Shown here: positions 1 through 9,453 of the stretch, piece by piece
Numbering within the stretch: position 1 is the first letter of the stretch
How the letters are laid out: each line of letters begins with the position of its first letter
IMG/VR virus record: IMGVR_UViG_2639762982_000011
Source of the DNA: a virus
Taxonomy: Duplodnaviria > Heunggongvirae > Uroviricota > Caudoviricetes
Strand: one strand, 5' to 3'
Length of the DNA stretch: 16,675 bases
Notes under the pieces: model-generated
Told to the model about the DNA's origin: nothing
The model's input: only the letters and a program-made list of their open reading frames with translations
Databases searched by the model: none
Made by a program: the position numbers and the translations under genes

Positions 1-63
1 GCGGGGAAGTTTGCTTCTTTGAGGGGCAGGTTTTCGTTTACGGGGTTTAGCTGAACGGGACAT
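1..63 (-). CDS. 5' end of outward-reading ORF, partial (N-terminus MSRSAKPRKRKPAPQRSKLPR...); duplicate of the ORF starting at 16552
   Basis: ATG is the reverse complement of 61..63 and the frame stays open to the window edge. Identical to the right-arm copy, which continues YVVKLHDDDFFDEEDAEALR. Weak SD (AGGT) upstream. Confidence 0.45.
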   Translation of the reverse strand, partial: MSRSAKPRKRKPAPQRSKLPR

Positions 64-76
64 ATAACTACCTGAA

Positions 77-125
77 AGACAATGATATTGTCTGTTTTTA
101 TAACGGTAATTTCAGGCCATGACAA
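77..125 (-). promoter_or_regulatory. Putative sigma70 promoter plus palindromic operator (left-arm copy)
   Basis: Mirror of the right-arm element: -35 TTGTCA (rc 120..125), 17-bp spacer, -10 TATAAA (rc 97..102), then perfect palindrome AGACAAT-N3-ATTGTCT (77..93) between -10 and the ATG. Confidence 0.4.
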
Positions 126-621
126 GCCGCAGCCGCCAGGCTGCCTACTCGATATTAAATCCCATCCAGAATAATTGAATAACGGCTATTATTTAGTCGC
201 CGCAATATCTTCAAAGTTTTTTTCTCACCCCATTGCTTTTTGCGCACAGCTTATCTGGCTTGCGGTGCGCCGAAATGTAAATTCGCCTTCAGAGTTATCC
301 ACAAAGTTATGCACTTGCAACGAGGCCATTTTCCTCATACTGTGTTTGCACACACAGGAAATGGATATTTTATTAATTGAATTTTATTAAATAATAATGA
401 TAAGGAGAAAATTTGAGATGTAATCATGACATTAATAGATAGGGCCTGCATTACAGGCCCCAACTACATCAAGGAATTCACAGTTCCCTGATTTTTATAC
501 CGAAAACATGTGCCGTAAGTTCACGTTAACGACTTTCTTTCACCGAATCCAACTATATAGAGGTTGGGTTTCTACGTCAACGTGAGAGCACACAGCTTTA
601 CATTTGACGAGGATTACCCTG

Positions 622-759
622 ATGATTGTATTTTTTCAGTTTCTAAGTGCATTTTTAAATGCGCCTGTTCTTAGCCAAGTGCTGGCGATTGTCTTCATCG
701 TGGTTCTGATATGGTTTTTCAAGTCAGTGATAAACAGAGGCGTGCGCTGGCTTATTTAA
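622..759 (+). CDS. Small hydrophobic peptide, 45 aa (MIVFFQFLSAFLNAPVLSQVLAIVFIVVLIWFFKSVINRGVRWLI); single predicted transmembrane helix
   Basis: Hand translation; below the ORF-track length cutoff. GAGGA at 609..613, 8 nt upstream of ATG 622. Basic C-terminal tail. Confidence 0.3.
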   Translation: MIVFFQFLSAFLNAPVLSQVLAIVFIVVLIWFFKSVINRGVRWLI

Positions 760-1297
760 TGTCGCGCTGAGATATTAATTCCCTTGCTGTTTAACCATTT
801 TTTGTGTGTGCTGGTGAGCGTGTGAAGGCTCAATTTGTTGCCCACCAGTATTTACTATTTCTAAGCTCCACAGTGTCACTTCCGCACAAACAACTTAGCG
901 CGGAATCAGTATTCGGCCCAAGATGTAAAAAGCCAACCTGCGTTATGGTTCGCATTTCCAAATAGTGTTCTGAACGCCCGTGCCGGGCGCGAGATGTGGA
1001 TTAGCGTTCGCGCTATGCTGATATACGGCTTTAGACTTTCCATATTGCTGACAGGCTTTATCTGCGGTTTTTTGCAGGCTATCCAGCCCATACCAGCCAT
1101 CAGACTGGATGCTTACCTTTTCACCGTCATTGTATTGCACCATCGCGAACCCAAACATAGCTATCATCGCACCGACAATACCGCTTTTCCAAAAAGCTCT
1201 AATTAGGTCATTCGTTGCCTAATGTCCGAACTGCTAAAGCATCAAAGTTGCTGTAGAATCACCGCCAATTACTTAAGCCTGAAATAAGTGGAAGAAA

Positions 1298-2854
1298 ATG
1301 ACAAGTATTCAACAACGTGCAGAACTTCATCGCCAGATCTGGCAAATTGCTAACGATGTCAGGGGTTCAGTCGATGGATGGGATTTTAAGCAGTACGTTC
1401 TGGGCGCGCTTTTTTATCGTTTTATCAGCGAAAATTTTTCCAGCTATATGGAAGCCGATGATGACAGCATCTGTTATGCAGCACTGGATGACAGCGTAAT
1501 TACTGATGACATTAAAGACGATGCCATCAAAACCAAAGGCTACTTCATCTACCCAAGCCAGCTTTTCTGCAACGTAGCTGCGAAAGCAAATACCAATGAC
1601 AGACTGAATGCAGATTTAAACAGTATCTTCGTTGCTATCGAAAGTTCTGCTTACGGCTACCCTTCAGAAGCAGACATCAAAGGTTTGTTTGCTGATTTCG
1701 ATACCACCAGTAACCGCCTGGGTAACACCGTTAAAGATAAAAATGCCCGCCTGGCTGCGGTTCTGAAAGGGGTTGAAGGGTTAAAACTTGGTGACTTCAC
1801 CGAACATCAGATTGATCTGTTCGGTGACGCCTATGAGTTCCTGATTTCTAACTATGCCGCGAATGCCGGTAAGTCCGGCGGCGAGTTCTTTACACCGCAG
1901 CACGTCTCTAAGCTGATTGCACAACTGGCTATGCACGGGCAGACCCACGTTAACAAAATCTACGACCCGGCAGCAGGCTCCGGTTCGCTGTTGTTGCAGG
2001 CTAAAAAACAGTTTGATGACCATATCATCGAAGAAGGTTTTTTTGGTCAGGAAATCAACCATACGACCTATAACCTGGCGCGTATGAACATGTTTTTGCA
2101 CAACATCAACTACGACAAGTTTGATATCAAGCTGGGCAATACGCTGACTGAACCACACTTCAGAGATGAAAAACCGTTTGATGCCATCGTTTCTAACCCG
2201 CCGTATTCGGTGAAATGGATTGGCAGCGATGACCCGACGCTGATTAACGATGAACGTTTTGCCCCGGCTGGCGTTCTGGCCCCCAAATCAAAAGCTGACT
2301 TCGCCTTTGTACTACATGCGCTGAACTATCTTTCTGCCAAAGGTCGTGCTGCGATTGTTTGCTTCCCGGGTATTTTTTACCGTGGCGGCGCGGAGCAGAA
2401 AATCCGTCAGTATCTGGTTGATAATAACTATGTCGAAACCGTGATTTCACTGGCACCGAACCTGTTCTTTGGCACCACCATTGCCGTAAACATTCTGGTG
2501 TTGTCTAAACATAAAACAGATACAAAAGTTCAGTTTATTGACGCCAGCGAACTATTCAAAAAAGAGACCAACAACAATATCCTGACCGATGCCCATATCG
2601 AACAGATTATGCAGGTATTTGCCAGCAAGGAAGATGTTGCTCATCTGGCGAAATCAGTCGCGTTTGAGACCGTTGTTGCTAATGACTATAACCTGTCGGT
2701 GAGCAGCTATGTTGAAGCGAAAGATACTCGCGAAATTATCGATATCGCTGAGTTGAATGCAGAGCTGAAAATCACGGTCAGCAAAATCGACCAGTTGCGT
2801 AAAGATATTGATGCGATTGTGGCTGAAATTGAAGGCTGCGAGGTGCAGAAATGA
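1298..2854 (+). CDS. hsdM: Type I restriction-modification DNA methyltransferase subunit HsdM (N6-adenine), type IC family
   Basis: 518-aa ORF. AdoMet-binding motif [10 protein letters not shown] and catalytic NPPYS motif. Stop overlaps the hsdS start (ATGA at 2851..2854). N-terminus [15 protein letters not shown] resembles EcoR124-family HsdM as I recall it. Confidence 0.95.
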
Positions 2855-4107
2855 GCGAGTTGAGTTATCTGGAAAAATTGCTGGATGGGGTTGAGGTTGA
2901 GTGGAAACCCTTGAAGGATGTTTGTGATTTTAAAAATGGATTTGCATTTAAAAGCAGCTTATTTAAAGAAACTGGGTTACCGATAGTTAGAATCACAAAT
3001 ATAGATGGATTTAATGTTGACTTAGATGAGGTGAAATACTTTTCACTAAATGATTACAAGGAAGATTTATCCTCCTTTGAGGTATCTATGGGAAATATAT
3101 TGATTGCAATGTCAGGTGCCACTACAGGAAAAGTGGGAATTTATAAAAAAGGAACAAAATGTTATCTTAACCAACGGGTTGGAAAATTCATACCCAAAGA
3201 AAATATTCTAAACAATAATTATTTATACCATTTTTTATTGTTAAATACAGAGACTATTTATATCCTCGCCGGGGGCGGAGCACAACCGAATCTAAGCTCA
3301 AATGCATTGATGTCAAAACTACTCATCCCAATTCCCTGCCCGGATAATCCGGAAAAATCCCTCGCCATCCAGTCTGAAATCGTTCGGATTCTGGACAAAT
3401 TTACTGCACTTACCGCTGAGCTTACCGCTGAGCTTAACATGCGTAAAAAACAGTACAACTACTATCGCGACCAGTTGCTGAGTTTTAAAGAGGGTGAGGT
3501 TGAGTGGAAGGCATTGGGAGAAGTAGCCAAAATACAACGTGGGGCATCCCCCAGGCCAATTGTTAATTATCTTACTGAACAAGGAAATGGTATCCCATGG
3601 ATTAAAATCGGAGATACTATCCCCGGCTCTAAATACATTGACAAAACCTTACAAAAAATAACTGCAGAGGGTGCCCAAAAATCGCGAATCTTGAACCCCG
3701 GTGATTTCGTCATTTCTAACTCTATGAGCTTTGGCAGACCATATATTTTAAGGATAACCGGAGCTATCCATGATGGATGGGCATCAATCAGCAATTTTGG
3801 TGAAAAATTAAATGCTGATTATCTGTATCACTATCTTTCATCAAAAAAGGTGAAAAATTATTGGGAAAGTAAAATCAATAGCGGGTCGGTCAGTAACTTG
3901 AATGCAGATATTATAAAAACATTACCAGTGCCATTGCCTGATAAACAGAAACAAGAGCGAATATCTGCTCTGCTCGATAAATTCGACACCCTGACCAACT
4001 CCATCACCGAAGGTCTCCCGCGTGAAATCGAGTTGCGCCAGAAACAATACGAGTACTATCGTGACTTACTGTTCAGTTTCCCGAAACCTGAAACTGTCAG
4101 TAATTAA
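2851..4107 (+). CDS. hsdS: Type I restriction-modification specificity subunit HsdS, type IC family, two target-recognition domains
   Basis: 418 aa. Central conserved region ...[33 protein letters not shown] and C-terminal conserved region ...[36 protein letters not shown] separate two variable, AT-rich domains. Translationally coupled to hsdM. Confidence 0.95.
3409..3432. repeat. Two tandem copies of 12-bp unit CTTACCGCTGAG (LTAE-LTAE) in the hsdS central conserved region
   Basis: Direct read: cttaccgctgag cttaccgctgag, in frame with hsdS. This is the repeat whose copy number sets spacer length in EcoR124I versus EcoR124II. Confidence 0.9.
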
Positions 4108-4228
4108 TTGACCATTGCTACCGACCGGACCACCTTAACATCCGGTCTGTATATAGACTATTTTTTACGTGCCGGAAGTCACCCTTAACTCCCTTCCGGC
4201 CCTTGCCAGACGGCACAAAGGATGCGCT
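4108..4228 (+). promoter_or_regulatory. hsdS-hsdR intergenic region; possible independent hsdR promoter and hairpin
   Basis: 121-bp gap. Hairpin ACCGGA...TCCGGT (about 4124..4147) followed by a T-run. Candidate TTAACA-N17-TAGACT. SD AAAGGA before ATG 4229. Weak promoter match. Confidence 0.3.
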
Positions 4229-7200
4229 ATGACTCATCAGACACACACTATTGCTGAATCCAATAACTTTATCGTCCTTGATAAGTACATCAAAGCTGAG
4301 CCAACAGGCGACAGCTACCAGAGCGAATCGGACCTGGAACGTGAACTGATTCAGGACCTGCGGAATCAGGGCTATGAATTTATATCCGTAAAATCTCAGT
4401 CGGCTATGCTGTCCAATGTTCGGGAACAGCTTCAGAGCCTCAATGGTGTGGTGTTTAATGACAGCGAGTGGCGGCGTTTCACGGAGCAGTATCTGGACAA
4501 CCCGAGCGATGGCATTCTGGATAAGACCCGTAAAATCCATATCGACTATATTTGCGACTTTATTTTTGACGACGGGCGTCTTGAGAACATCTATCTGATA
4601 GATAAAAAGAATCTCATGCGCAACAAAGTGCAGATTATCCAGCAGTTTGAACAGGCAGGTTCTCACGCTAACCGTTATGACGTAACTATCCTGGTTAATG
4701 GCTTGCCTCTGGTGCAAATCGAACTGAAAAAGCGCGGCGTGGCGATTCGTGAGGCTTTCAACCAGATACATCGTTACAGTAAAGAGAGTTTTAACAGCGA
4801 AAATTCCCTGTTTAAGTATCTGCAACTGTTTGTCATTTCTAACGGCACCGATACCCGTTACTTTGCCAACACCACAAAGCGCGATAAAAATAGTTTTGAC
4901 TTCACCATGAACTGGGCGAAATCAGACAACACGCTGATTAAAGACCTCAAAGATTTTACCGCTACCTTTTTCCAGAAACATACTCTGCTGAATGTTCTGG
5001 TGAACTACAGCGTTTTTGACAGTAGTCAGACGCTACTGGTGATGCGACCGTACCAGATTGCCGCCACCGAGCGCATTCTGTGGAAAATTAAGAGCTCCTT
5101 TACAGCGAAGAACTGGTCAAAACCGGAAAGCGGTGGGTATATCTGGCACACCACGGGTTCCGGTAAAACCCTGACCAGCTTTAAAGCCGCGCGTCTGGCA
5201 ACAGAACTGGACTTTATTGATAAAGTTTTCTTTGTGGTCGACAGGAAAGACCTCGATTACCAGACCATGAAGGAATATCAGCGTTTTTCGCCAGACAGCG
5301 TCAACGGCTCGGAAAATACCGCAGGTCTTAAACGAAATCTGGATAAGGACGATAACAAAATTATCGTCACCACTATTCAGAAACTTAATAACCTGATGAA
5401 AGCAGAAAGCGACCTGCCTGTATACAATCAGCAAGTGGTGTTTATATTTGATGAATGTCACCGCAGCCAGTTTGGAGAAGCACAGAAAAACCTGAAGAAG
5501 AAATTCAAACGCTATTATCAGTTTGGTTTTACCGGCACACCTATTTTCCCGGAAAACGCCTTAGGCTCAGAAACGACCGCCAGCGTATTTGGCCGTGAAT
5601 TGCATTCATATGTTATTACCGATGCGATTCGTGATGAAAAAGTGCTTAAATTCAAGGTGGACTACAACGATGTGCGGCCACAGTTTAAGTCTTTAGAGAC
5701 AGAAACTGACGAGAAAAAACTGAGTGCGGCTGAAAATCAGCAGGCGTTCCTTCATCCCATGCGTATTCAGGAAATTACGCAATATATCCTGAATAACTTC
5801 CGCCAGAAAACCCACCGTACTTTCCCTGGCTCCAAAGGTTTTAATGCCATGCTGGCAGTGAGCAGCGTGGATGCCGCGAAAGCCTATTACGCGACGTTTA
5901 AACGGTTACAAGAGGAAGCCGCTTATAAATCTGCTACCTATAAACCACTACGTGTTGCGACAATCTTCTCCTTTGCCGCTAATGAAGAACAAAATGCCAT
6001 TGGTGAAATTTCCGATGAAACTTTTGATACCAGCGCAATGGACAGCAGTGCTAAAGAGTTTCTCGACGCTGCAATTCGTGAATATAACAGCTATTTTAAA
6101 ACTAACTTCAGTACCGACAGTAACGGTTTTCAGAACTACTATCGTGATTTAGCCCAACGGGTTAAAAATCAGGATATCGATCTGTTAATTGTCGTTGGGA
6201 TGTTTTTAACCGGCTTCGACGCTCCAACATTGAACACGCTATTCGTCGATAAAAACTTGCGTTTTCACGGCCTGATGCAGGCATTCTCCCGCACCAACCG
6301 CATTTATGACGCGACTAAAACCTTCGGTAATATCGTCACGTTCCGGGATCTGGAACGCTCAACCATTGATGCCATAACGCTGTTTGGTGACAAAAATACC
6401 AAAAATGTGGTTTTAGAAAAGAGTTATGCAGAGTATATGGAAGGCTTTACTGATGCTGCCACTGGTGAAGCTAAACGCGGCTTCATGACAGTAGTTTCAG
6501 AACTGGAACAACGGTTCCCTGACCCTACCAGTATTGAAAGTGAAAAAGAGAAGAAAGACTTCGTTAAACTGTTTGGCGAATACCTGCGTGCCGAGAACAT
6601 CCTGCAAAACTATGATGAATTTGCCACGCTAAAAGCCCTGCAACAAATCGATCTTAGCGATCCTGTTGCGGTAGAAAAATTCAAAGCAGAACATTATGTG
6701 GATGATGAAAAGTTCGCTGAATTGCAAACAATTCGTCTCCCTGCTGATCGCAAGATTCAGGATTATCGTTCTGCCTATAACGATATTCGCGACTGGCAGC
6801 GCCGTGAGAAAGAAGCTGAGAAAAAAGAGAAATCAACCACTGACTGGGATGATGTAGTTTTTGAGGTCGATTTGCTGAAGTCTCAGGAAATAAACCTGGA
6901 TTATATCCTTGGACTGATTTTCGAACACAACAGACAAAATAAAGGCAAGGGCGAAATGATCGAAGAGGTCAAACGCTTAATTCGTTCAAGCCTGGGAAAC
7001 CGGGCGAAAGAGGGCCTGGTGGTCGATTTTATTCAGCAAACGAACCTGGATGATTTACCAGACAAAGCCAGTATCATTGAGGCATTCTTTACGTTTGCTC
7101 AACGCGAACAGCAACGTGAAGCAGAAGCATTGATAAAAGAAGAAAACCTCAATGAAGAAGCAGCAAAACGCTATATTCGCACGTCTTTAAAACGCGAATA

Positions 7201-7345
7201 CGCCACCGAAAATGGCACAGAATTAAACGAAACATTACCAAAACTTAGTCCGTTGAATCCGCAATATAAAACGAAAAAACAGGCAGTTTTCCAGAAAATC
7301 GTCTCGTTTATTGAGAAGTTTAAAGGCGTAGGCGGAAAAATATAG
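4229..7345 (+). CDS. hsdR: Type I restriction enzyme endonuclease/helicase subunit HsdR
   Basis: Walker [14 protein letters not shown]-type box FDECHR, nuclease-like D...ELK motif in the N-terminal region (VQIELKK). ATG 4229 has SD AAAGGA about 7 nt upstream; the ORF-track start at 4169 is a GTG without SD. Confidence 0.93.
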
Positions 7346-7361
7346 CCCAATTCGTGTTTTT

Positions 7362-7389
7362 CTTGCGGGTTCTTAATTAAACCCGCAAG
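7362..7389. other. 9-bp stem hairpin just after the hsdR stop (CTTGCGGGT / ACCCGCAAG)
   Basis: Perfect inverted repeat with 10-nt loop. T-run precedes rather than follows the stem on the + strand, so not a canonical terminator. Confidence 0.3.
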
Positions 7390-7424
7390 AGACCGTGGGG
7401 TTCCAAATGGCTAATATACTCCCC

Positions 7425-7511
7425 TTACCCATGCGCAACGATGCCGCCAAAAATGATAGAGAACAGCCAGAAATAGATCGCGGCCATAATGATTTTGAAT
7501 GCCGTGTTCAT
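7425..7511 (-). CDS. Small membrane peptide, 28 aa (MNTAFKIIMAAIYFWLFSIIFGGIVAHG)
   Basis: Hand translation. Strong SD AGGAG about 8 nt upstream of the ATG (rc of 7509..7511). Single hydrophobic helix. Lies downstream of operator-like promoter 7581..7610. Confidence 0.4.
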   Translation of the reverse strand: MNTAFKIIMAAIYFWLFSIIFGGIVAHG

Positions 7512-7539
7512 ATTTTCAGCTCCTGTGATTGATTGGATA

Positions 7540-7570
7540 CATGCCGCGCCTTGCGGCATGTTTTTATTTT
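7540..7570 (+). terminator. Rho-independent terminator-like hairpin (CATGCCGC-GCCTT-GCGGCATG followed by TTTTTATTTT)
   Basis: 8-bp GC-rich stem, 5-nt loop, T-rich tract immediately 3' on the + strand. On the minus strand it sits in the leader of the 28-aa ORF. Confidence 0.5.
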
Positions 7571-7580
7571 CACTTTCTCT

Positions 7581-7610
7581 GTTTTAAAAATCAAGACTTA
7601 TTAGAGCAAT
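7581..7610 (-). promoter_or_regulatory. Operator-like element ATTGCTCTAATAAGTCT (P1 C1-operator-like) fused to a conserved ATTTTTAAAAC element; putative repressor-controlled promoter
   Basis: Minus-strand read ATTGCTCTAATAAGTCTTGATTTTTAAAAC. 13/17 match to the P1 C1 operator consensus ATTGCTCTAATAAATTT as recalled. Same bipartite 30-nt element recurs at 9723..9752 (26/30 identical). TTGCTC-N17-TAAAAC geometry. Confidence 0.5.
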
Positions 7611-8116
7611 TATTGTTGATGGAGAAGCGCGTTTTCATACTCCCTGACCATTAACGTAAGTACGCCGTGACTCCTGAAAACACGCGCCACTTCAATCTTA
7701 TCTTCCAGCGCGAACGCAATTTTACTTAGACCAATTTTCTTCAGGAGATCAATCTTTGCTGGACCGTCATTTCTGTCATCGGTGGCAGGACGCATAGATA
7801 GCAAAGGCTCAGCCCCATTTGTTACGTGCTTACGCAACCAGGCTCGTGTTTTATCCCTGGCTATCTCACAGCGCCCGGTTACAAACCAGAGGGTGTAAAT
7901 GCCGGACAACTGGCGCACCATATCAATAACTGGAGTGATGGGAGCATCAGTGTCACAGGCAAGGTTAAACTCGTTCCAGTGCTCTGTTAATGCACCTTTG
8001 CCAGGTGGTGGAAGTAAATGCAGCCTGTCTTCCGTTGCCTCTGATATCGTCCCATCAATATCTACTATGACGATGTACGGACGTTCCTGGTGTGCGTGTT
8101 TATTGAAAATACTCAA
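7610..8116 (-). CDS. HAD-superfamily phosphatase-like protein (168 aa)
   Basis: N-terminal motif IVIVDIDGTIS (DxDGT, HAD motif I). Start is TTG at 8116 with strong SD GAGGAGG upstream. Substrate not inferable. Confidence 0.7.
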   Translation of the reverse strand: MSIFNKHAHQERPYIVIVDIDGTISEATEDRLHLLPPPGKGALTEHWNEFNLACDTDAPITPVIDMVRQLSGIYTLWFVTGRCEIARDKTRAWLRKHVTNGAEPLLSMRPATDDRNDGPAKIDLLKKIGLSKIAFALEDKIEVARVFRSHGVLTLMVREYENALLHQQ

Positions 8117-8188
8117 ATGCCCTCCTCATTGGACGAAAAAAATGCTGGTGGGAGCACTCCACCAGCATTAAAAGTGACACTGTAACTA

Positions 8189-9394
8189 TCAGCGAACGTA
8201 AATAGTGCCGCCGTTCTCTTTTTCCCATGCATCGCTACGTGCATAGCAAACATCGAGAAGTCTTCTTGCCGCAGTTTCCTCTAAACCCAATTCGACAACC
8301 AACTGCTCATGACGGCGGGTAACCACATCAAACAGGGTATGCAGCCCTTTAGTTGCCAGATCATCAATGAATTCCGGTTCGAACGGCAGCTCTGCATCTG
8401 CTAACATAACCTCTTGCGCCCACTCAACTCGACGGACCAGTTCCGGGCGGCGGCTTTCCATCTCTTTACAGATCAATTCATGGAAGAACTCTACCCAACC
8501 TTCCGGCTGGAACTCGCGGAAAATTGCCAACGGCTGGAAGTTTGGCATCAACCATTCGTTGATTCGGATATCAATGGCATAGCCCATGTCGCAGCAGAAC
8601 TGATAAGCAAAGTCCAGCTTAGAAACGATATAAGGACGCTCGTTATTGAACTCTTTAGGCGATGAGATCCCATAAGCCAGGAGGCGCGGGAAGAAGGAGA
8701 TTTGCCCTAACGTCGGATGAAGTTTGCTTGCAGGGAAACGGCGCTCAGTAATGCCATACATTTCCTTCTTGAGCGTCGCAAATTTGGCATTCTCATTAAC
8801 CAGCGCGGTAACCTCTGCTTTTTTATTAGCAAATGCCACGCGCGCTTCGCTTGCATCTTTAATAGTTTTTTTGAGCTGTTGGTTAAGGTCGGCGACCTGC
8901 TTACGCAGTTCCTGTCGCTCGCTTTTAGCTTTGTTATAGCGTTTCTCAAGGTTAAAAGGATCAAGTTTCATGATCTCTTTATATTGAGATTTTAGCGTTG
9001 AAATCTGTGAGTTCCGCAGTTCAACCATCGCGGTCATTTCATTGAGTTTTGTTTCCAGCTCAATGCTTATACGTTCGGCATTATCAGCACGCTGGTTGGC
9101 GTCATGCGTCGCATCGTCGATCGCGTCCTGTTGCTGGCGTTTCAAATGTTCAATTTGCAGCTGAAGCTCTTCAATTTCTTTACCCTTCAGACCGAGATCC
9201 AACTGCATATTTTCAGCTGCATCTACCAGGGAGTTATGGCTATCAGCTTCTGCGTTATAAACATCAATAAGCTGTGCGTGAAGCATCTCCGCTGACTGAA
9301 CCGCATTATCAAAAAAAACGTGCTGTGAGGTCATCACAACTAACGCGGCGTTGCGCGGCCCGGATGTTCTGGATAATGGCCGGGATACCGGCAT
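8189..9394 (-). CDS. Coiled-coil protein with uncharacterised C-terminal domain (401 aa as called); 5' end probably extends to ATG 9452 across a frameshift
   Basis: N-terminal half is heptad-rich and charged (EELQLQIEHLKRQQQ..., RQELRKQVADLNQQLKK); C-terminal about 200 aa is globular-looking. No SD before ATG 9394 or 9334. See homopolymer at 9311..9318. Confidence 0.75.
   Translation of the reverse strand: MPVSRPLSRTSGPRNAALVVMTSQHVFFDNAVQSAEMLHAQLIDVYNAEADSHNSLVDAAENMQLDLGLKGKEIEELQLQIEHLKRQQQDAIDDATHDANQRADNAERISIELETKLNEMTAMVELRNSQISTLKSQYKEIMKLDPFNLEKRYNKAKSERQELRKQVADLNQQLKKTIKDASEARVAFANKKAEVTALVNENAKFATLKKEMYGITERRFPASKLHPTLGQISFFPRLLAYGISSPKEFNNERPYIVSKLDFAYQFCCDMGYAIDIRINEWLMPNFQPLAIFREFQPEGWVEFFHELICKEMESRRPELVRRVEWAQEVMLADAELPFEPEFIDDLATKGLHTLFDVVTRRHEQLVVELGLEETAARRLLDVCYARSDAWEKENGGTIYVR
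9311..9318. other. A8/T8 homopolymer tract at a frame junction inside the 5' region of the coiled-coil gene
   Basis: ORF starting at ATG 9452 (MSTSAQNQSIENVSIPDVLNAGIPAIIQNIRAAQRRVSCDDLTARFF) stops immediately after the tract. Removing one T fuses it in frame to the 8189..9394 ORF. Confidence 0.8.
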
Positions 9395-9453
9395 TCAGGA
9401 CATCAGGGATAGATACATTTTCGATTGATTGGTTTTGTGCTGAAGTGCTCATT

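Follow-up and report, generated by a model that had tools for sequence, protein, structure and literature searches.

A probable loss-of-frame allele of pmgS, with an eight-base T run, in a P1-like phage-plasmid of Escherichia coli

Phase variation through homopolymers is characteristic of the simple-sequence contingency loci, such as those of the surface and restriction-modification genes of Neisseria, Haemophilus, and Campylobacter. Departures from the reading frame are also known from the +1 frameshift of the prfB type and from transcriptional-slippage genes, including Thermus dnaX, Shigella mxiE, and genes of IS elements (PMC1088944, PMC5009743). Programmed transcriptional slippage is associated with A/T runs of ∼9 or more nucleotides (PMC1088944). 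In the curated record of bacteriophage P1 (AF234172), pmgQ is followed by two C1 operators and the promoter PpmgR, then by pmgR (72 aa), pmgS (420 aa, coiled coil), and pap. Deletion analysis found pmgR to be essential for P1 virion completion (PMC9024508). In the same study, 24 of the 29 P1 knock-outs had no plaquing defect, and pmgS was not among the five essential genes (PMC9024508). CRISPRi likewise scored pmgS as non-essential for P1 lytic growth (PMC10695390), as did a deletion survey in the form in which that paper cites it.

The stretch of DNA analyzed here (the window, 16,675 nt) is identified by its sequence matches as belonging to a P1-like phage-plasmid of E. coli, in which the gene split by an eight-base run is pmgS and the upstream 72-aa open reading frame (ORF) is pmgR (Table 1). 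A 1.7-kb region of the window has matches in 679 E. coli records, with 676 of the 689 matched places located on plasmids, as well as in 683 PLSDB plasmids (95 to 100% identity) and in 19 phage records (∼99% identity), among them P1, P7, SJ46, and RCS47. The gene order pmgQ-pmgR-pmgS-pap is present together with the C1-controlled promoter, and the operator and promoter sequences are identical to those of P1. With the reading frame restored, the 420-aa product matches the PmgS-like family phrog_1660 over residues 1 to 420 (E = 1.1e-195), and the product of the upstream ORF matches phrog_3177. A Pfam search with PmgS returned nothing above the threshold, only sub-threshold coiled-coil noise. In every RefSeq plasmid inspected, pmgR is left unannotated by PGAP.

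Table 1. Coordinates of the features of the window
Feature	Coordinates	Strand	Remarks
Type I restriction-modification system, EcoR124 family	1298..7345	+	Complete; beside pap
hsdM	1298..2854	+	
hsdS	2851..4107	+	
hsdR	4229..7345	+	
pap	7610..8116	-	168 aa; HAD/PNKP-type phosphatase; downstream neighbor of pmgS
Intrinsic-terminator-like hairpin	8136..8169	-	11-bp stem plus T7 run; between pmgS and pap
Terminator T7 run	8136..8142		Non-coding; IMG/VR: 85 T7, 7 T8, 2 T6
pmgS remainder	8189..9310	-	Codons 48-420 plus stop; +1 frame relative to the 5' fragment; inside the 401-aa ORF 8189..9394
pmgS A7 run	8866..8872		Coding; IMG/VR: 101 A7, 1 A6
pmgS 5' fragment	9309..9452	-	47 codons plus TGA (PmgS residues 1-47); start matches P1 and RefSeq plasmids
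T8 homopolymer (A8 on + strand); site of the pmgS T7 run	9311..9318	-	Coding; third base of Arg45, Phe46, Phe47, first base of premature TGA; IMG/VR: 119 T7, 1 T6
pmgR	9454..9672	-	72 aa; intact; adjoins pmgS via TGAaATG; P1 annotation and phrog_3177 match
OpmgRb (C1 operator)	9687..9703		P1 annotation AF234172
PpmgR (predicted sigma-70 promoter)	9723..9751	-	P1 annotation AF234172; overlaps OpmgRa
OpmgRa (C1 operator)	9736..9752		P1 annotation AF234172

An earlier note, made from the letters of the window, had described a homopolymer that splits the 5' end of a coiled-coil protein gene, and its reading of the sequence stands in every particular. The run is eight T residues long on the coding strand, and the ORF that starts at ATG 9452 ends at it after 47 aa, reading CGT TTT TTT TGA, so that the stop codon takes its first base from the end of the run. 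This start is tightly coupled to the 72-aa ORF, lying one base after its stop codon, and is preceded by a weak GGA/GGAG motif within the 3' end of pmgR that is conserved in diverged homologs. The 401-aa ORF reads through the run without a stop in the +1 frame, and its in-frame starts (9394, 9337, 9334, and 9286) are devoid of a convincing Shine-Dalgarno sequence. Deletion of one T yields a single continuous protein of exactly 420 aa, where the note had estimated about that length. No other homopolymer in the window reaches 8 bases; since ∼0.7 such runs are expected under an independent-base model, its mere presence is not statistically remarkable.

The note's proposal that both ORFs belong to a single gene, divided by the gain of 1 nt in the run, and its suggestion of looking for an intact ORF in relatives, are borne out by the orthologs. 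In P1 and in hundreds of P1-like plasmids, pmgS is a single intact ORF with seven T residues, and the P1 and intact RefSeq copies carry one 1,263-nt coding sequence that starts at the equivalent of ATG 9452. None of this favors a start at 9394 or 9334, as the N-terminal 47 aa are conserved in homologs down to 51% identity. In the window, the reading frame is interrupted by TGA after codon 47, and the window copy is, by this comparison, a frameshifted allele or pseudogene of the pmgS family.

The surveyed records identify T7 as the reference state of the pmgS run. It is found in P1 (locus L004), in plasmid pSvP1_F (L005, NZ_MN510446.1), and in three further loci (L001, L003, and L006); T8 is found in the window, in plasmid unnamed6 of strain ETEC1731 (L002), and in loci L007, L008, and L009. 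Against pSvP1_F, the extra T is the sole difference over the 16,675 bases of the window, the remainder of pmgS having no substitutions relative to the intact pSvP1_F gene. Among 670 complete-genome E. coli records having the locus, exact 79-mer (T7) and 80-mer (T8) matches were counted. The T7 79-mer of the window's allele is present in 316 records and that of the second common allele, with GCG for GCA three bases upstream, in 291, so that T7 is confirmed in at least 607 of the 670, with 62 records falling outside these run-length counts. The exact T8 80-mer occurs in a single record, NZ_CP122822.1 (ETEC1731), and no T8 on the second common allele was seen in the 670 records. A length-tolerant pattern recovered 120 IMG/VR contigs, all T7 except for one T6 contig, which is the only short run in the IMG/VR scans; dedicated scans of the whole collection returned no contig with T8 or longer.

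A single extra base in a homopolymer could be a sequencing or assembly error, as the earlier note had allowed, with a true run of T7 miscalled, for example, in a long-read consensus. The record NZ_MN510446.1 speaks for such an error: it has T7 and is identical to the window at the other 16,674 positions, both IS91 junctions included, so that either there is an error in one of these records or they are separated by a slip or reversion of very recent date. Nevertheless, no other indel distinguishes the window from pSvP1_F over 16.7 kb, and T8 is reproduced in assemblies of three other strains that carry the same near-clonal lineage, namely L007 (Logan SRR12827410; 1 substitution and no gaps over 6,144 nt relative to the window), L008 (GCA_000249735.2; 1 substitution and 1 gap), and L002 (ETEC1731; 2 substitutions in 7.7 kb). 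In a 2.36-kb pmgQ-pmgS alignment, all other 6- and 7-nt runs of L007 and L002 have normal length, and L008 departs from this at one place, the A6 run at 8819..8824, where 1 nt is deleted. The exact 47-aa fragment was found on 129 contigs (146 indexed blocks of the protein collection) from both NCBI assemblies and Logan assemblies of public runs, and downstream-part products of 381, 401, and 365 aa were found on 112, 9, and 44 contigs, respectively. The gene neighborhood of the window, with an EcoR124-type hsdR beside pap, is shared by 22 of the 24 contigs read. Judged by these near-identical independent contigs, the T8 run in the lineage of the window is most probably real and inherited, and a read error is less likely. 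If T8 is real, the T7 of NZ_MN510446.1 would reflect a reversion or else a mistake in the record; the SvETEC paper contains no information on the pmgS run.

Homopolymer miscalls are nonetheless common in public assemblies of this locus, which counts toward the read-error explanation. The noisy assemblies L131 (Logan ERR15567782) and L139 (SRR21973077) have an extra base in all three 7-nt runs; L145 and L146 (both T5) carry many 1-nt indels, mostly deletions, and L081 (T6) carries many as well, several of them insertions. The T6 product is limited to NCBI assemblies and was never seen in Logan, which points the same way, and the T9 product is absent from the protein collection. Given such systematic homopolymer errors, some of the pmgS "frameshift" alleles in the databases are artifacts. 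The T5 and T6 alleles, coming mostly from visibly noisy or long-read-style assemblies, were not counted as evidence of switching. In phage vB_EcoM-813R1 (L010, ON470617.2), the pmgS run is T5 and the gene is annotated as two ORFs, while the "PmgS" label sits on the neighboring pap-like gene, in what looks like an annotation slip.

In a 2.36-kb alignment of 102 loci, the T8 loci fall into several haplotype groups, most of which are nearer to a T7 sequence than to other T8 groups. Thus, L141 and L142 have no substitutions relative to the T7 locus L038 and 15 relative to the nearest other T8 group; the corresponding figures are 4 and 16 for L132, and 8 and 17 for L143. T8 products with other substitutions (S2I, S14C, and N7K) were looked up as well and come from contigs with differing downstream genes. 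Because the T8 groups lie nearer to T7 sequences than to each other, the slip from T7 to T8 has occurred repeatedly, arising independently in P1-like plasmids outside the lineage of the window. Such recurrence is to be expected of a 7-nt run that very many plasmids carry.

The ends of the window (1..152 and 16463..16614) are perfect 152-bp inverted repeats. In pSvP1_F, these repeats form the ends of two IS91-family copies (orf121 WP_000091308.1 plus transposase), which lie in inverted orientation on either side of this 16.3-kb P1 segment. Other P1-like plasmids match only positions 152..16463, so IS91 may have inverted the P1 segment or moved it.

The lengths of the neighboring runs offer a view of the forces that act on the reading frame. 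In the length-unbiased IMG/VR set, the run of the terminator downstream of pmgS varies in ∼10% of contigs, compared to ∼1% for both coding 7-nt runs of pmgS (Table 1). Because this nearby non-coding T7 run varies ten times more often, the pmgS frame is probably maintained by purifying selection, and in nature PmgS appears to be under such selection despite being dispensable for lytic growth under laboratory conditions. Diverged homologs, gathered by exact-protein look-ups (a scan of genome contigs gave 3 loci), come from Salmonella, Cronobacter, Pantoea, and metagenomes. At 51 to 71% identity, they keep the motif CDDLxxRFF(D/E)NA, and the tight pmgR-pmgS junction is conserved down to ∼52% identity. 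In these homologs, Arg-Phe-Phe is encoded by CGC TTC TTT, CGT TTC TTT, CGC TTC TTC, or CGA TTC TTC, with no run. As the TTC codons break the run, it is an incidental codon choice of the P1 clade rather than a conserved slippery site. For the same reason, a -1 slippery heptamer U_UUU_UUU in the intact T7 genes, followed by TGA TAA in the -1 frame, was considered and rejected. An internal terminator was rejected as well, the weak hairpin that precedes the run (9340..9322) being no better than those of shuffled sequence.

These observations bear on the suggestion, also made in the earlier note, that the run is a phase-variable (contingency) switch, maintained so that slippage between T7 and T8 switches PmgS between on and off states across the plasmid population. 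The repeated origin of T8 on different backgrounds is what such a switch would produce, as is the occurrence of both T7 (pSvP1_F) and T8 within one near-clonal lineage, and the -1 frame has TGA TAA directly past the run. However, confirmed T8 is limited to just one of the complete E. coli records, with none among the IMG/VR contigs, where a contingency locus would frequently differ in run length among close relatives. The run is also short, and instead of being conserved across diverged orthologs it is absent from the homologs that retain Arg-Phe-Phe; the tenfold higher variation of the non-coding run points to selection on the frame rather than to switching, and pmgS belongs neither to the surface genes nor to the restriction-modification genes. 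A maintained switch is therefore highly improbable, and the contingency reading of the note was not upheld. It is very doubtful, too, that the run works as a leaky or reversible on/off switch of low frequency, tuning PmgS dosage in resident P1-like plasmids by slippage between T7 and T8 along with +1 or transcriptional slippage of the T8 allele, the OFF state being favored in some host lineages, for example pig ETEC.

Another way to retain function would be recoding, whereby the T8 allele still yields functional full-length PmgS, either by +1 frameshifting at UUU UGA (prfB-like, with P-site tRNA-Phe re-pairing on UUU) or by RNA polymerase slippage on U8. The sequence CGU UUU UUU UGA does place a shift-prone UUU before UGA and allows perfect re-pairing on UUU in the +1 frame beside the stop codon. 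In human apoB, runs of eight A residues are reported to have yielded restored product at ∼10%, and in some IS elements such runs seem to allow slippage (PMC1088944), which speaks for recoding. The downstream ORF is free of additional lesions in the window, but a recent mutation explains this equally well. Against recoding, the upstream sequence GAC CTC ACA GCA CGT contains no GGAGG-like element that could serve as the Shine-Dalgarno-like stimulator of a prfB-type shift. Of the relatives resolved, more than 99% are in frame, so the two-frame arrangement is not a conserved one, and the run, with 8 nt in the window, 7 in relatives, and interruptions in diverged homologs, falls short of the length associated with programmed slippage. 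Recoding to a functional level thus has a very slim chance of being correct.

The frameshift falls within the most conserved N-terminal motif of PmgS. Reinitiation at the next in-frame Met (ATG 9286), which has no good Shine-Dalgarno sequence, would give a product without this motif. The AlphaFold model of PmgS (mean pLDDT of 77) consists of a short N-terminal helix, very long helices at residues 41 to 160 and 166 to 232, a small alpha/beta domain, and a helical bundle at the C terminus. In the model, residues ∼355 to 413 (window ∼8210..8390, minus strand) superpose on the N-terminal HhH domain of RAD51/RadA with an rmsd of 1.6 to 1.8 Å over 52 to 61 aligned columns; this resemblance is weak and not significant (E values of 0.07 to 0.4 in Foldseek and 0.2 to 0.4 in HMM comparisons). 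Neither a profile search against solved structures nor Foldseek against the PDB gave a match to PmgS at E ≤ 0.001, the weak likeness to the HhH domain being confined to the last ∼55 aa. A distant PmgS homolog, P0092, carries a precomputed Pfam HHH_5 hit. PmgS may bind DNA rather than being a part of the virion.

The explanation that best accommodates these data, and the one that is probably correct, is a genuine allele of pmgS in the window that has lost its reading frame; in P1-like phage-plasmids, pmgS is an accessory gene in the operon that it forms with pmgR under C1 repression. In this explanation, replication slippage would have added one T to the T7 run coding for Arg45-Phe46-Phe47 (CGT TTT TTT), and translation from ATG 9452 would end at the TGA formed at the end of the run, giving a 47-aa peptide. 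As the other 373 codons lie out of frame, with no credible ribosome-binding site of their own, PmgS would be absent or, conceivably, made in trace amounts by non-programmed +1 slippage at UUU-UGA or RNA polymerase slippage on U8. The origin by slippage, the loss of function (a null allele), and the trace read-through of T8 are all inferred. The allele would be tolerated because P1 can grow lytically and form plaques in the absence of pmgS, while pmgR, which is needed, lies upstream and is untouched. It would have been inherited within a near-clonal lineage of P1-like plasmids; those members that have been identified are from pigs or from pig ETEC (ETEC1731, and SvETEC for the T7 sister record). 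The case is therefore regarded as an ordinary +1 homopolymer frameshift in a known and dispensable phage-plasmid gene, not as a programmed or phase-variable switch.

For annotation, this means that both ORFs should be described as one frameshifted pmgS, not as two genes, and that the 72-aa ORF left out of the RefSeq annotations is pmgR. The T8 allele may serve as a lineage marker for near-clonal P1-like plasmids, including those of pig and pig-ETEC isolates. The locus also provides a small population-genetic illustration, as 7-nt runs are mutable (∼10% variation where non-coding) and the frame of pmgS is kept in ∼99% of cases. The T8 allele opens no new biological question.

Among the described systems, the contingency loci resemble pmgS in having a homopolymer near the 5' end of the ORF, in which +1 and -1 changes switch the frame and independent changes recur. 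They differ in that the pmgS run is short, rarely variable, and not conserved in homologs, and in that pmgS is a phage accessory gene for which the population data indicate selection for the in-frame state. With prfB and the transcriptional-slippage genes, the T8 allele shares a codon prone to shifting immediately ahead of UGA, as well as an A/T run capable of RNA polymerase slippage, but pmgS has no Shine-Dalgarno stimulator, the run is 8 nt rather than 9 or more, and the out-of-frame arrangement is a rare derived state instead of a conserved one. The likeness to pmgS of P1 itself (AAQ14063.1; PHROG 1660, "PmgS-like head morphogenesis") extends to 99% nucleotide identity over pmgQ-pmgR-pmgS-pap, a start codon that adjoins the pmgR stop, C1 operators and a promoter upstream, and a restored product of 420 aa. 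The differences are the run, T8 in the window versus T7 in P1, with the frame of the window broken past codon 47, and the genes downstream of pap, pmgT-pmgV in P1 and the EcoR124-family restriction-modification system in the window. Plasmid unnamed6 of ETEC1731 (NZ_CP122822.1) differs from the window by an IS1203-family IS3-like element annotated within the matched region, an hsdR gene annotated as incomplete, and the lack of the IS91 junctions found at the window ends. Yet it carries the identical T8 allele, and the frameshift is already known from this sister plasmid, where PGAP flags pmgS (QDY29_RS26410) as "frameshifted."
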